Below are positions 9,609 to 14,309 of a stretch of DNA of 17,501 nucleotides, in pieces (positions within the stretch are counted from its first letter, which is position 1; the number at the start of each line of letters is the position of its first letter). This DNA is from Candidatus Methylomirabilota bacterium (GTDB lineage Bacteria > Methylomirabilota > Methylomirabilia > Rokubacteriales > CSP1-6), in contig JBKPAK010000235.1 in the NCBI GenBank assembly GCA_046726415.1, positions 1 through 17,501 of the forward strand, given 5' to 3'. The position numbers were made by a program, and so were the translations under genes. The notes below the pieces were generated by a model. The model saw only the letters and a list, made by a program, of their open reading frames with translations. It was not told where the DNA came from and made no database searches.

Positions 9609-10774
9609 CTACATCGCGGCCTCATGATGACTGCGCAAGCTTCGGCGTGCGCAACTGACAAGCAAAGTTGCCGCGTCTTCGATCTCAGTCTCGGTCGTGA
9701 ACCGCCCGAGGCTGAGCCGGATGGCACCACGGCCAAGTTCGAACGGGATCCCCATGGCGGCAAGGACGGGGGAGAGCCGAACCTGCCCCTCATGGCAAGC
9801 CGAGCCAGTGGAGGCCGCGATCTCCGGAACCGCTTCGAGCAGCTCGGCGCCCACGCAGCCTGCGACACTAACATTCAGCGTGTTGGGCAATCGGTGCTCC
9901 GGGTGGCCATTGAGCACCACAGACTCGCCGAGCCCCTGAGTGAGGCGGGTAAAGAGTCGGTCGCGGAGGTTCCGGAGCCCGGCAGCGGCGGGCAACGCCT
10001 CGCGCGCGACCTGGCACGCAGCACCCAGGGCCACAGCATACGGTACGTTCTCGGTTCCCGCCCGGCGGCCGCGCTCATGCCCGGCACCGTGGATCAAGGA
10101 CTCGAGTTCGAGCCCGGCGCGAACGTACAGGGCTCCGATACCCTTCGGCGCATAGAGCTTGTGACCGGCAAGCGAAAGCAGGTCGATGTTCATCCCCCGA
10201 ACGTCGACGGAGATCTTCCCAGCTGACTGAGCCGCGTCTACGTGTAGAAGCGCACCGTGCGACCGAGCGAGTGCGGCGATCTCACGGATTGGCTGGATCG
10301 TACCGACCTCGTTGTTGGCGTGCATGATGCTCACCACGAGGGTGCGCCGAGTGAGCGCCCGTGCCACCGCATCGACCTCCACACAGCCGTAGCGGTCCAC
10401 GGGGATCCGGGTCACCGAGCAGCCGAGCCGCTCGAGGAACGCGCATGTCTCGAGGGTCGCGGGGTGCTCAACCGTGGTCGTGAGGATCTGGAGATCATGC
10501 GCGGGCGTGCTCCGCAGTGCCCGGAACACGAGCCCCTTGAGGGCGTGGTTCGTCGCCTCGGTCCCACCGCTGGTGAAGATCACCTCGTCGGGCTGAGCCC
10601 CGATCAGGCCCGCAACTCGGGATCGCGCATGCTCGACGGCCTCACGGGCGAGATGTCCAAGACATGGGTGCTCGACGGATTGCCGAAATGCTCGTCGAGG
10701 AATGGCGCCATCGCCGCACGCGCCGCAGGGTCGAGGGGCGTCGTCGCATTGTAGTCGAGATAGATCGGCTTCAT
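9609..10774 (-). pseudogene. Group I cysteine desulfurase/selenocysteine lyase-like PLP enzyme with a single frameshift at about 10657
   Basis: ATG 10774 overlaps the upstream stop (ATGA). [16 protein letters not shown] / FTSGGTEA, MHANNEVG, HVDAAQ, AGHK (PLP Lys), RAGTENV, STGSACH (catalytic Cys). Adding one G restores ..[14 protein letters not shown].. Confidence 0.9.
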
Positions 10775-11229
10775 CGCCTGTGGCCTCGGTCGATGAGCGC
10801 GCGCACCTCGGCGATCACGGCCTCGGCCTGATCCGCCGGGCAACCCCAGTAGTCGAAGATGCCGCCACGAATATGGTCGAGCGCCAGTCCACTGCGTTGG
10901 TCCCTTCCGCAGATGACGATGTGCCCGACACCCGTCGTCCGCGCGAGATGTGAATGAAGCCAACCTACGAAACCGGTCGCGTCGAACTTCGGGTTGAAGT
11001 GGAAGCTGAAGATCGTGAACTGCCCAGGCTGCCTCCGTGCATCCGTGGCAGGAGCCAGTGCGCTCCACTGCTCGCCATCACGCACGCAAGCGAGGGCTTC
11101 GGGCGACACGCGCTCGGGACCGTACCGCAGAGGTTCGAAGACATAGACCCTGGGTAGCACCTGGAACTCCGAGTTGGCAATCACCGTCAGCAGCCGAGCG
11201 TTGGTCTCGTCGGGAGTCTCCTCGTTCAT
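10771..11229 (-). CDS. DUF6196-like protein
   Basis: [17 protein letters not shown]....D.TGFVGWL.SHL....[16 protein letters not shown] motifs. GAAGGA RBS; coupled to the desulfurase by an ATGA overlap. Confidence 0.75.
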
Positions 11230-11244
11230 CTGGCGTCCTTCAGC

Positions 11245-12522
11245 TCATCGGGAGGCACGGCGCTTCTCGCGCATCGTGGCTGCAAGCGAACCTGATGTGG
11301 GTCCAGGCGCCGGCTGGCGCATGGCCAACCCCACGACTCCGCCCGATAGCAGGGTGAGAGCCGCCACGACATGGATGGCCGCTTCAAGATCTATCGCGTC
11401 GGCGACCAGCCCAGAGAGTAGCGCGCCAATGGCGTACCCGAGGTCGCGCCAGAACCGGTACACGCCGAGACTCGACGCGCGCCACGTCGGATGGGCGTGA
11501 TCGGCGATGGCCGCCAGGAGTGTCGGGTAGACCATCGCGGTACCGAGCCCCTGGAGGGCGGCGGCGAGCAACCAGGCGCCGTACGCTGGCATCAGCACGG
11601 TGAGCCAGATGCCCACGGCCTGGACGACCATGCCCCACGCGATGAGACCTTTCCGGCCGACGCGATCCGACAGCATGCCGGTCGGGATCTGCAACAGGCC
11701 CCACACGATCGGGTAGACGGCCTTGACGATTCCGATGCGCTCGACGTCGAGTCCGTGGGCGCTGAAGAACAGCGGGTAGAGGCCCCAGGACATCCCGTCG
11801 TTGAGATTGTTGACCAGCCCGGCCTGACAGGCGGCGAAGAGGCTCACGTTGCCGAGCGTGGTCACGTAGAAGATGCGGCCGAGCGACAGCGGATGAGTGG
11901 GCATCGTCCCGGAGGTGGCCTCGAGCTTCACGTAGTCGCGAGTCTCTCGGACCAGGAAAATCGACATCAAGAGTCCGGCGACCGCGATGGCGATCCCGAG
12001 ATAGAACGGCTGCGGACGCAGCGCGTAGTGACCAGCGATGTACCCCGTCACCCAGGCCATTGTTCCCACCGCGAAGTAGCCCGCGAACTCGTTGAGGCCG
12101 AGGGCCAGACCCCGGCGGCGCGGGCCCACGAGGTCAATCTTCATGATCACCGTCATCGACCACGCCATCGCCTGGCTGGCGCCCAGGAGCACGTTAGCGA
12201 GGTCGATCCACCACCACACGGGCGCGTAGATGATGAGGAACGGCACGGGCAGCGCGAAGAGCCATCCCACGACGAGGACCGGCTTGCGCCCGATGCGGTC
12301 GGACAGCCGCGCCGCCACCAGGTTCAGCACAGCCTTCGACACCCCAAAGCTGACGATGAACGACGTGATCGCGGTCTTCGAGCTGAGACCGAACTCCTGC
12401 TCGCCCAGGAGCGGGAGCACGGTTCGCTCCAACCCCACCATCGCTCCCACGAAGGCGTTAAGCAGGACGAGGAGTGAGAACTGCGGGAGGTTCTCCCGCA
12501 GTCCGAGGCGGAGCTCAGTCAC
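11245..12522 (-). CDS. MFS transporter
   Basis: 425 aa with about 12 TM and MFS motif A twice (RLSDRIGRK, GMLSDRVGRK). LGLRENL.QF.LLV..NAFVG.MVGLERT subfamily. GTG overlaps the upstream stop (GTGA). Confidence 0.95.
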   Translation of the reverse strand: MTELRLGLRENLPQFSLLVLLNAFVGAMVGLERTVLPLLGEQEFGLSSKTAITSFIVSFGVSKAVLNLVAARLSDRIGRKPVLVVGWLFALPVPFLIIYAPVWWWIDLANVLLGASQAMAWSMTVIMKIDLVGPRRRGLALGLNEFAGYFAVGTMAWVTGYIAGHYALRPQPFYLGIAIAVAGLLMSIFLVRETRDYVKLEATSGTMPTHPLSLGRIFYVTTLGNVSLFAACQAGLVNNLNDGMSWGLYPLFFSAHGLDVERIGIVKAVYPIVWGLLQIPTGMLSDRVGRKGLIAWGMVVQAVGIWLTVLMPAYGAWLLAAALQGLGTAMVYPTLLAAIADHAHPTWRASSLGVYRFWRDLGYAIGALLSGLVADAIDLEAAIHVVAALTLLSGGVVGLAMRQPAPGPTSGSLAATMREKRRASR

Positions 12523-13256: not shown

Positions 13257-13333
13257 GGCCCGGCCTCCTTCCCCTGTCGGGGTCTTCTTCCGCTTGATAG
13301 CGCCTGGATCGACATAAGCGCCAATACTGTTTT

Positions 13334-13350
13334 CTTATCCGACCGATAAG
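13334..13350. promoter_or_regulatory. LysR recognition site (T-N11-A dyad)
   Basis: Perfect dyad CTTATC-cgacc-GATAAG containing T-N11-A, in the AT-richer divergent intergenic region just upstream of the lysR ATG. Confidence 0.7.
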
Positions 13351-13364
13351 CTTATGCTCCCGCC

Positions 13365-14309
13365 ATGACGCTCCGACAACTGGAAGTCTTCCTGGCCGTG
13401 GCTCGGGCCCGGAGCTATCGCCGTGCCGCCGACACCCTGCACACCAGCCAGCCCGCGCTCTCGCAACACATCCACGAGCTGGAGAGCGATCTCAAGGTGA
13501 AGGTGTTCGACCGGCTTGGACGGAGCGTCGCCCTCACCGAGGCTGGCCGGCTTCTCGAGACCCACGCGCTACGCGTGTTCGGCGCGCTCGACAGCGCGCG
13601 CGAGGCCATCGGGGAACTGCAGGGCCTCCAGCGAGGCTCCCTCGTGGTCGGGGCGAGCACCACGCCAGGGATCTACGTCCTCCCCAGCGTGATCGGCCAC
13701 TTCCGTCGGCAATATCCCGGTGTCGACCTGCATCTGAGGATCGCCAACTCACGGCTGATCGAGGACCGCATCCGCAACAACGAGCTGGATCTGGGCGTGG
13801 TCGGCGGTCATGGGTTGGCGGCCGGCGAGGAGTGCTTGGTCACCGGCCTGGACGACGAGCTCGTGTTGATCGTGTCGCCCCGGCACCGCTGGGCGCGGCG
13901 TCGCACGGTGGCGCCCACCGATCTCGCCAGCGAGCCTCTCCTCATGCGCGAGGAGGGCTCAGCGAGCCGTGACGTGACGGTGCGCGCCCTGCTCCAGGCC
14001 GGCGTTCGCTACCAGACCGCCATGGAGCTGGACCACACCGAGGCCATCAAGCAGGCGGTGATGGCGGGGCTGGGCGTGGCCTTCGTCTCGGTGCACGCCG
14101 TCCGCCGGGAGGTGGCGAGCGGGCATCTCGCGGGAGTGCGCCTGACGGGCGTGCCGATCCGCCGTCACTTCCACGTCATTCACCACGAAGCGCGCACGCT
14201 GGGGCCAAGCGCACGTGCCTTCCTCCAGATGCTCGCGATGCCGCCGCGCGAGTCCCGGTCGAAACAGACATCACATCGCGCGCCGCCTGACCGGGTCGCT
14301 GTCCGCTAG
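13365..14309 (+). CDS. LysR family transcriptional regulator (CysL/CmpR-like substrate-binding domain)
   Basis: MTLRQLEVF..S..RAA..L..SQPALSQHI..LE HTH; GASTTPGIYVLP, LMREEGS..R, TEAIKQAVMAGLGVAFVS. Confidence 0.95.
   Translation: MTLRQLEVFLAVARARSYRRAADTLHTSQPALSQHIHELESDLKVKVFDRLGRSVALTEAGRLLETHALRVFGALDSAREAIGELQGLQRGSLVVGASTTPGIYVLPSVIGHFRRQYPGVDLHLRIANSRLIEDRIRNNELDLGVVGGHGLAAGEECLVTGLDDELVLIVSPRHRWARRRTVAPTDLASEPLLMREEGSASRDVTVRALLQAGVRYQTAMELDHTEAIKQAVMAGLGVAFVSVHAVRREVASGHLAGVRLTGVPIRRHFHVIHHEARTLGPSARAFLQMLAMPPRESRSKQTSHRAPPDRVAVR

Follow-up and report, generated by a model that had tools for sequence, protein, structure and literature searches.

In the persulfide dioxygenase (PDO) CstB of Staphylococcus aureus, as described in a 2026 preprint (PMC12934615), an Fe(II) triad of H56, H119 and D145 is accompanied by a CstB-specific loop, C201-G202, that mimics glutathione. 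This loop is held by R154 and by F148, which stacks on L205, and it undergoes persulfidation followed by S-sulfonation in a manner that depends on Fe and O2; thiosulfate is formed when the S-sulfonate is passed on to the rhodanese-domain residue C408 (PMC12934615). The same preprint reports that Cys20 of CstB is persulfidated or sulfonated in crystals, with "significance unknown" (PMC12934615). Here we describe a gene in a stretch of 17,501 nucleotides of DNA from a Candidatus Methylomirabilota bacterium (NCBI GenBank assembly GCA_046726415.1, contig JBKPAK010000235.1, positions 1 to 17,501 of the forward strand; hereafter the window), whose predicted product we file as a selenocysteine (Sec)-containing, rhodanese-less form of the CstB-type enzyme with conserved partners of its own. 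Contig C235, which the window covers completely, is one of 352 contigs in a genome of 7.6 Mb that is 98% complete. Domains of its open reading frames (ORFs) were called with Pfam, curated families were assigned with NCBIfam and solved relatives were found by sequence match to structure chains. The homologues compared are 80 loci from species-representative genomes (cited as L numbers), 77 of which have a readable N-terminus.

The gene lies at 13256-12519 on the minus strand and, when an in-frame TGA at codon 20 (13199-13197, minus strand) is read as Sec (U), encodes a protein of 245 residues that has the fold of metallo-beta-lactamases (MBL; Lactamase_B, 1.7e-13) and U at residue 20. Its best solved relatives are 3tp9 (7.1e-51) and 3r2u (3.3e-45), both of which are MBL plus rhodanese proteins and are aligned over residues 1-241 with a Cys opposite U20. 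The bit scores of the solved CstB-like proteins range from 158 to 176, compared to 52-88 for ETHE1-type PDOs and approximately 37 for glyoxalases II. The equivalents of the Fe triad are H56, H112 and D137, and the self-substrate loop is represented by C189-G190-K191-G192-L193, the AACGKGL stretch of the PDO being aligned with the (S/P)CGK(A/S)L loop of 3tp9 and 3r2u. In an alignment of 15 sequences, H56, H112, D137, F140, R146, C189, G190, K191 and L193 are invariant. A C-terminal rhodanese domain is absent: residue 245 is the last of the protein, the stop codon overlaps the start of the next gene, and there is no Rhodanese hit. These alignments identify the predicted gene product as a stand-alone CstB-type (type III) PDO domain without rhodanese. 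Given that the rhodanese domain and Cys408 are missing, it is unlikely that the product is formed via the CstB route, in which the S-sulfonate is transferred to a rhodanese persulfide.

Codon 20 is TGA in 23 of the 77 readable homologue loci, TGC or TGT in 53 and TCG in one, and TGA is also found at this position in five further loci (L112-L116) from other families and classes of the phylum. The 19 codons ahead of the TGA are kept as protein and the AGGAGG ribosome-binding site (RBS) is kept as well, while the TGA itself is covered without difference by metagenome contigs from the runs X3 and X6. Almost all of the best database relatives (118 of 120) are 199-219 residues long, the three that were inspected start just behind the TGA, and two full-length database relatives (246 residues) carry Cys at position 20. 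We noticed that the TGA is followed by a hairpin resembling a bacterial Sec insertion sequence (SECIS) at 13178-13160 on the minus strand, within codons 27-33. This hairpin, GCUGUGG-UGGAU-CCACAGC, has a 7-bp stem and the loop UGGAU, begins 21 nt past the first base of the UGA and holds a G in its apical loop, as is asked of SECIS-type elements. Its sequence is found in 22 of the 23 TGA loci, with one G.U change in L020 and a displacement by an upstream indel in L036; the one TGA locus with a different hairpin sequence is L085.

Further analyses revealed that the hairpin is constrained beyond the protein that it encodes. When 22 Sec sequences were compared over their first 70 codons (the window and 21 loci, L036 and L085 being omitted), only codons 1, 20, 27, 28, 29, 30 and 32 proved invariant at the nucleotide level, and the Cys-form genes L044 and L047 encode the same residues, AVVDPQ, via other codons with which no hairpin forms. 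For the 19-mer, the folding energies average -10.4 kcal/mol in the TGA loci (n=23), compared to -2.5 kcal/mol in the others (n=54, best -6.9). L112-L114, from another family of the phylum, have the hairpin GUCUAC-GGUC-GUAGAC in the span of codons 20-33, and L085, on a Chloroflexota contig, has its own hairpin nearer to the UGA. The presence of different hairpins at or near the same place suggests that the SECIS structure persisted through a turnover of its sequence, or that there was more than one gain of Sec. The genome of the window encodes SelA (517 bits), SelB (374 bits) and tRNA-SeC(tca) side by side on contig C313, as well as SelD (336 bits), which itself contains one in-frame TGA. Given the Cys in the homologues, the hairpin whose synonymous sites are frozen only in the TGA forms, the hairpins of other clades and the presence of selA, selB, selD and tRNA-Sec in the genome, the comparative evidence establishes codon 20 as a predicted Sec codon. 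Two further cysteines are found in its neighborhood: Cys13 is present in every Sec form inspected, a position at which 3r2u (an S. aureus-type chain) has Gln, and, with L038 and L085 set aside, Cys26 is shared by all of the 22 Sec sequences that can be read (the window and 21 loci).

The PDO gene stands between a regulator and a transporter. A LysR-type regulator (13365-14309, plus strand; HTH_1 6.2e-22, LysR_substrate 5.9e-54) is divergently oriented, and three genes follow the PDO gene on the minus strand, i.e., a major facilitator superfamily (MFS) transporter with 12 transmembrane segments (12522-11245; MFS_1 9.2e-42), a DUF6196 gene (11229-10771; PF19696 4.7e-42, 143.8 bits vs. a cut-off of 25) and a class-V aminotransferase or NifS-like gene (10774-9609; Aminotran_5 4e-61, C-terminal part). 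The PDO stop and the GTG start of the MFS gene overlap as GTGA, the gap between the MFS and DUF6196 genes is 15 nt, and the DUF6196 stop and the ATG of the NifS-like gene overlap as ATGA. The G+C content of the window is 64-72%, without a break at the locus. An earlier note on this DNA had described a CysL-like LysR with a T-N11-A dyad, divergent from a candidate operon of four tightly linked genes that included a Sec-PDO-like, an MFS and a DUF6196 gene, and had seen no SQR, TauE or rhodanese in the window. The coordinates and all three junctions were recovered here, and the dyad is found as CTTAT-N7-ATAAG at 13350-13334. The Sec-PDO assignment agrees with the alignment of the codon-20 TGA with Cys, the hairpin, the Sec machinery and the CstB-type match, and the DUF6196 assignment with the PF19696 score. 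The PDO stop within the MFS start couples the two genes in translation and fits their co-transcription. SQR, rhodanese and TauE, which mark cst/sqr-pdo operons, are absent from the Pfam hits of the window ORFs.

To date, 29 Sec loci have been compared, namely the window, the 23 TGA loci of the homologue set and the five further loci. A LysR homologue is found divergently upstream of the PDO gene in 25 of them; it is missing at L020, L038 and L116, and L085 has just 888 nt of flanking sequence. Directly downstream, an MFS homologue (63-90% identity) is found in 26 of the 29, with L038 lacking it and L022 and L069 being without flank. The MFS gene is also present at L032, L035 and L062, where the N-terminus of the PDO is off the contig. 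Eight Chloroflexota Cys-form loci have an MFS homologue of 52-56% identity downstream and no LysR hit. The gene neighborhoods thus define a conserved unit of three genes, LysR, the predicted Sec-PDO and MFS. Independent genomes share the TGA, the downstream hairpin, an intergenic motif and the proximity of LysR and MFS genes, and these features are thus more than chance.

The divergent control region (13257-13364) contains the dyad, a number of conserved blocks and an RBS. In addition to the dyad, the window has the block GTATTGGCGCTTATG at 13327-13313 with a -35-like TTGG, a -10-like TATCAA at 13299-13294 and the RBS AGGAGG at 13269-13264. The 20 intergenic regions that can be aligned share an AT-N7-AT dyad next to the LysR start, the GTATTGGACCCTATA block (13327-13313 in the window) and a GTAnnACAAG block 19 nt further on, and AGGAGG precedes the ATG of the PDO gene in them. 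These elements may correspond to a LysR site and an activator-dependent promoter. A scan for consensus sigma-70 promoters found no promoter-like site, and the two terminator-like sites found are no more than in shuffled sequences.

The LysR of the window has the HTH_1 and LysR_substrate domains, the divergent gene and the T-N11-A dyad of a regulator with a divergent target. Its closest curated family is NF040786, the "selenium metabolism-associated LysR" (233 bits, below the cut-off of 250), followed by YeiE (207 bits) and CbbR (182 bits); no CysL model is among the best 25 of its 51 NCBIfam matches. The true NF040786 member of the genome (C223:11063-11944, 307 bits) is directly upstream of selD (the two genes together at C223:11063-12938), and the LysR of the window is the second-best NF040786 match in the genome and the closest paralogue of the selD-adjacent LysR, with 40% identity. 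It should be noted that a third LysR of this kind (204 bits; C94:4359-5844, L110) is divergent from an MFS gene with weak similarity (27%) to the MFS of the window. For the MFS of the window itself, no NCBIfam model scored above its cut-off, and the solved relatives are weak, including the YajR-type 3wdo (8e-09) and NorA.

The phylogeny of the PDO was examined with a tree of 76 rows, from which L036 (frameshifts), L032, L035 and L062 (missing N-termini) and L069 (length) were omitted. The window falls into a clade of 20 Sec rows (support 100/98), whose sister group consists of seven Chloroflexota Cys forms and the Sec forms L085 and L038; three changes of the Sec/Cys state are needed on this tree. 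A separate clade of 35 rows, mostly from Rokubacteria or Methylomirabilota, contains Cys paralogues, and all six of those examined are PDO plus rhodanese fusions of 457-543 residues, one of which also contains TusA. Thus, the Sec form is the stripped-down one. Sulf_transp (YeeE-type) genes adjoin the Cys paralogues L056, L057 and L077, TauE is also found at L056 and L077, flavocytochrome c sulfide dehydrogenase (FCSD) and cytochrome c are found at L056, and methionine-synthase-type genes adjoin L066 and L084. The occurrence of the fused Cys paralogues in sulfur-oxidation clusters anchors the PDO family in sulfane-sulfur oxidation. The genome of the window itself has further PDO paralogues with 45 and 39% identity. 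Among the 251 genomes of the phylum, a PDO homologue with exactly one in-frame TGA is present in at least 62 (from the 150 listed of 259 matches, and including the unpublished G216). SelA is found in 215 of the 251 genomes and in 55 of these at least 62 genomes; given that SelA is found nearly throughout the phylum, co-occurrence of the Sec-PDO with the Sec trait cannot discriminate. A phage-integrase-family gene is found approximately 850 nt behind the MFS gene of one Sec-PDO locus (L033:3198-3854), which, together with the patchy spread within the genus, hints that the module moves.

The two genes that follow the MFS gene in the window show a different distribution. DUF6196 is found in none of the 80 PDO-homologue loci, and within the phylum only six of the 251 genomes have it. 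In the five besides the genome of the window, no homologue of the PDO, NifS or LysR and no MFS orthologue was found within approximately 6 kb of it, and it follows an MFS gene of approximately 530 residues with a TRI12-type Pfam hit in three (L103, L106 and L107) and a phosphoesterase gene in two. DUF6196 is rare, with 411 proteins of similar length in a collection of 5.8 billion sequences, and in some metagenome proteins (listed among P0149, P0186, P0192 and P0194) DUF6196 is fused to a histidine triad (HIT) domain. The structure model of DUF6196 (pLDDT 88.8, pTM 0.82) found 1zvp (E 1e-05, TM 0.62-0.73) and 1zhv as its top Foldseek matches and, as weak hits with E >0.1, aspartokinase ACT domains and CASTOR1. 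DUF6196 is taken to be a small-molecule-binding protein with a predicted tandem ACT-like fold and, as far as the gene neighborhoods indicate, it is a lineage-specific insertion outside the conserved unit.

In the assembly, the NifS-like gene lacks 1 nt between 10659 and 10660 and is split as a result, which was absent from the earlier note: the frame of the N-terminal 41 codons is closed by a stop at 10604, and the rest of the gene reads in another frame. Contigs from three soil-metagenome runs of three studies (X1, X3 and X6) differ from the window by 6-7 letters in 676-1433 bases, are otherwise approximately 99.5% identical to it and have one extra base behind 10659; by eye, this base restores the conserved Y-G of the intact 385-residue homologue at L062. 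The split is thus an assembly error or a private strain mutation, and the gene is probably intact in the population. Given that the X1 contig runs from the desulfurase gene through DUF6196 into the MFS gene, the order NifS-DUF6196-MFS exists outside this assembly. TIGR03402 (NifS) scores 377 bits vs. a cut-off of 530.75, only the 347-residue C-terminal part having been scored. The translation shows a GHK motif, which we take to be the usual site of the lysine that binds pyridoxal phosphate (PLP), and an SAC motif. The gene had previously been called a desulfurase or Sec-lyase-like enzyme. The desulfurase part of this call agrees with the scores of 270 bits for IscS (1p3w) and 265 for NFS1; Sec-lyase identity was rejected, since the scores for Sec lyases are 177-182 bits (3a9x 182). 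Five other desulfurase paralogue hits (30-47% identity) are found in the genome, and the gene at 9609-10774 is, on these scores, a putative extra NifS/IscS-type (class I) cysteine desulfurase.

A NifS-like gene is found in only one of the 80 PDO loci, L062, where it directly follows the MFS gene. The earlier note had expected the four-gene combination to be conserved and had proposed gene-neighborhood analysis as the check; with DUF6196 in none and a NifS-like gene in one of the 80 loci, the four-gene unit fails this test. What stands of the sulfur/selenium-handling operon that it had proposed is the LysR/Sec-PDO/MFS unit, while the DUF6196 and NifS-like genes are local add-ons. The genes downstream were surveyed in the 17 Sec-clade loci that have at least 600 nt behind the MFS gene. 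A PLP sulfur enzyme comes next after the MFS gene in five of them, namely a NifS-like enzyme in the window (behind DUF6196) and at L062, and a Cys_Met_Meta_PP enzyme at L016, L035 (1865-2788) and L036 (10356-11683). At L016 (2201-3922), the Cys/Met PLP enzyme and a NifU-like domain at its C-terminus are encoded by one ORF of 574 codons, an uncommon kind of fusion; at L036, a NifU-like domain is likewise found in or behind the PLP enzyme. A PLP sulfur enzyme is missing behind the MFS gene in the remaining 12 loci, and where Pfam gave a hit the gene is unrelated, for example a methyltransferase, an extracytoplasmic function (ECF) sigma factor, a trypsin-PDZ protease, an integrase or a fatty-acid hydroxylase. 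Since a PLP sulfur enzyme of some kind follows the MFS gene in five of the 17 loci, an accessory link of the unit to cysteine-derived sulfane sulfur is plausible.

Based on these comparisons, we propose that the LysR controls, from the dyad-bearing intergenic region, a divergent two-gene operon of a Sec20-containing stand-alone CstB-type PDO and an MFS transporter, by which a persulfide is oxidized and the product is exported; we consider this proposal probable, with considerable room for doubt. Sulfane sulfur from a low-molecular-weight or protein persulfide would be loaded on the loop Cys189 and oxidized with O2 at the Fe(II) site. Sec20, which takes the place of Cys20 of CstB and would be a better nucleophile and leaving group than Cys, may act as a strong nucleophile that loads or resolves the intermediate instead of the missing rhodanese cysteine. 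The MFS transporter would export sulfite or thiosulfate, as an analogue of TauE/YeeE in the classical clusters. In the genome of the window, where DUF6196 and the desulfurase appear to have been appended behind the MFS gene, the NifS/IscS-type desulfurase may feed cysteine-derived persulfide to the PDO. We infer the enzymatic activity of the PDO, the role of Sec20, the substrate of the MFS transporter and the effector of the LysR from the relationships described above. A more specific version holds that position 20 of CstB-type enzymes is a catalytic redox site that was upgraded to Sec in the rhodanese-less domain, with Sec20 attacking the S-sulfonate or persulfide of the loop Cys189, possibly across the oligomer interface, as a substitute for the rhodanese cysteine; we put this forward tentatively and consider it rather unlikely to be correct as worded. 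If true, it would constitute a selenium-dependent route of sulfane-sulfur oxidation under a selenium-family LysR, one that current annotation would miss despite its wide occurrence in a major soil phylum.

Several observations weigh against this proposal or against the readings on which it is built. In the HxHxDH motif of the PDO, Gln58 takes the place of the second His. In the crystal structures of CstB, approximately 29 Å separate Cys20 and the opposite protomer's Fe, and the role of this residue is left unexplained (PMC12934615), so a direct catalytic role of Sec20 is a guess. A universal U-x5-C redox pair was considered and rejected, as Cys26 is absent in seven Sec forms (L038, L085 and L112-L116). 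The main hairpin is invariant and thus shows no covariation within its own clade, and the 76 nt around the TGA as a whole fold no better than shuffled sequences (z -0.75), so that the case for the hairpin is a comparative rather than a thermodynamic one. Rfam at its gathering thresholds gave no match in the whole window, and no curated SECIS or riboswitch model applies. The MFS transporter is without a characterized close relative, and the export of sulfite or thiosulfate is thus proposed by analogy only. Two genomes of the same genus (95 and 72% complete) have only distant PDO paralogues (best E 4e-48 and 1e-53), which indicates that the module is accessory and dispensable.

Other explanations of the same data differ in how much of the evidence they can accommodate. 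If the TGA were a true stop, the gene would be the 218-residue ORF that starts from the GTG at 13175, as it is in databases, or a pseudogene. Gene callers annotate it in this way, as the lengths of 118 of the 120 best hits illustrate. The 218-residue form would, however, begin too late to include the initial strands of the MBL fold (aligned with residues 1-30 of CstB), and this explanation is at odds with the conserved upstream frame, ATG and RBS, the Cys of the homologues at the TGA position, the synonymous-site constraint in the hairpin and the complete Sec machinery, so that we find it scarcely credible and close to refuted. Nor does the database name "hydroxyacylglutathione hydrolase" carry much weight. 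It would make the MBL protein a glyoxalase II or thioesterase-type hydrolase in which Sec has another redox or metal-binding role, and TIGR03413 (GloB) is indeed the best NCBIfam hit. The score of 87 bits is far under the cut-off of 200.8, however, the solved CstB-like proteins match much better than glyoxalases II (158-176 vs. approximately 37 bits), the CstB-specific loop and its stabilizing residues are invariant, and the Gln that replaces the second His of the binuclear-site motif counts against a hydrolase as well, which makes this identity very improbable.

The remaining two explanations concern the regulator and the extent of the pathway. The LysR might be a selenium-status sensor of the LysR_Se/HrsM kind, and the module a selenium-dependent isoenzyme, with the Sec-PDO being used when selenium is available and the full-length Cys-containing CstB paralogue otherwise. 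The affinity to NF040786, which is the best curated family of this LysR, and the second-best match in the genome with 40% identity to the true member directly upstream of selD, together with the LysR_Se group defined by Lin et al. (2015) and its relation to HrsM, which controls Sec/Cys isogenes in Methanococcus (PMC5322559, in the parts used here), make selenium sensing a serious rival to a sensor of sulfur oxyanions; Rokubacteria also carry both the Sec-PDO and the Cys-containing CstB paralogue. The score is, however, below the cut-off of 250, YeiE and CbbR score nearly as well (207 and 182 bits), and the LysR tracks the clade rather than Sec, with L085, L116, L020 and L038 being Sec forms without a detected LysR. 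The two paralogues also differ in architecture and are thus not simple isoenzymes, and on balance we consider this explanation unlikely. A wider pathway would include all four genes, with the NifS-like desulfurase freeing sulfur (or selenium) as an enzyme persulfide or perselenide, Cys (or Sec) being the source, the Sec-PDO oxidizing it, the MFS transporter moving the substrate or product and DUF6196 being accessory. The tight coupling of the genes (GTGA, 15-nt gap and ATGA) is consistent with such a pathway, as are the desulfurase being an extra copy beside five other paralogue hits, its intact state in environmental contigs and the one contig that spans NifS, DUF6196 and MFS. That non-orthologous PLP enzymes replace each other behind the MFS gene, in five of the 17 Sec-clade loci, suggests a real link. 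Against this, DUF6196 is in none and a NifS-like gene in one of the 80 PDO loci, a PLP sulfur enzyme is missing behind the MFS gene in 12 of the 17 loci, no PDO, NifS or LysR homologue is found within 6 kb of DUF6196 in the five other genomes of the phylum that have it, and the desulfurase resembles IscS (270 bits) more closely than Sec lyase (182 bits). The wider pathway is possible but doubtful, and we retain the two-gene operon of PDO and MFS under the control of the LysR.

A second small module is found next to this unit, at 14176-16926 of the window, and consists of a MerR regulator (16270-16926), an MFS transporter (15087-16235) and a PIG-L/BshB-like deacetylase (14176-14973). Homologues of this MFS transporter and/or of the PIG-L deacetylase are located a few kb from the LysR-PDO-MFS unit at L017, L021, L025, L026 and L029, with a MerR also at L025, and their recurrence hints at a link to low-molecular-weight thiol metabolism. 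The PIG-L ORF and the convergent 3' end of the LysR gene overlap by 134 nt (14176-14309), and only the first 177-210 or so residues of the PIG-L ORF match homologues, so its tail may represent a second frameshift or a spurious extension. Elsewhere in the window, ARAGORN called an 85-nt tRNA-Pro(CGG) at 5691-5775 on the minus strand; since Rfam reports no tRNA there at its gathering thresholds, this call is doubtful. Several ORFs of 136-188 codons without a Pfam match at E <=1e-4 are found at 5000-7500, flanked by the genes for FtsH (2629-4848) and for a methyltransferase (7509-8327).

If the Sec-PDO oxidizes persulfides as proposed, selenium use would be linked to sulfane-sulfur handling in Methylomirabilota/Rokubacteria, an abundant uncultured soil phylum. 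Deng et al. 2026 (Cell Rep) reportedly present candidate selenoproteins from groundwater metagenome-assembled genomes, one from Methylomirabilota among them. These candidates may include the PDO family; no description of a Sec-containing MBL-fold or PDO family was found in the literature searched. Such a family is absent from deep-Sep (main text and three supplement files) and from the main text and the part of one supplement file of BSepDB that were covered, and no NCBIfam selenoprotein model matches the PDO. The family table of a 2026 review contains no MBL-fold, persulfide dioxygenase, glyoxalase or hydrolase selenoprotein family, and the same review describes the host phylum as rich in selenoproteins (PMC13188914). 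The family is thus absent from the catalogues examined, and it is annotated as an N-terminally short fragment in 118 of the 120 best database hits. Where Sec naturally replaces Cys, the exchange strongly marks the residue as catalytic and redox-active, and here it marks Cys20 of CstB. Sec at this position thus offers a direct, testable hypothesis for an open point in the mechanism of persulfide dioxygenases.

Compared to the known prokaryotic selenoproteins (PMC13188914), the PDO follows the same pattern, in which Sec replaces a conserved Cys and a bacterial-type SECIS hairpin follows. In the LysR_Se/HrsM group (NF040786), which is the best-scoring curated family for the LysR of the window and has a true member by selD in the same genome, the resemblance is partial, as the LysR of the window is under the cut-off and adjoins a selenoprotein gene, not Sec-synthesis genes. 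VC0802 (1zvp) and Atu0741 (1zhv) have a tandem ACT-like fold like that of the DUF6196 model, with an identity of only 15-17%, and their own function is also unassigned. The full-length CstB-like paralogues of the phylum are 52-57% identical to the PDO domain and have Cys at position 20; they carry two rhodanese stretches, and none of the six examined is accompanied by an MFS or LysR of the window type. The rhodanese-homology and rhodanese domains of S. aureus CstB, the latter with Cys408, have no counterpart in the PDO of the window, and the partners of CstB are CstR, TauE, CstA and SQR, in contrast to the MFS transporter and LysR found here. Consistent with a CstB-type enzyme are the alignment over the full length of the PDO domain, the Fe triad, the Cys-Gly-Lys-x-Leu loop and the Arg and Phe that hold this loop, and position 20 carries a redox residue in both proteins, Cys in CstB and, as predicted here, Sec in the PDO of the window.

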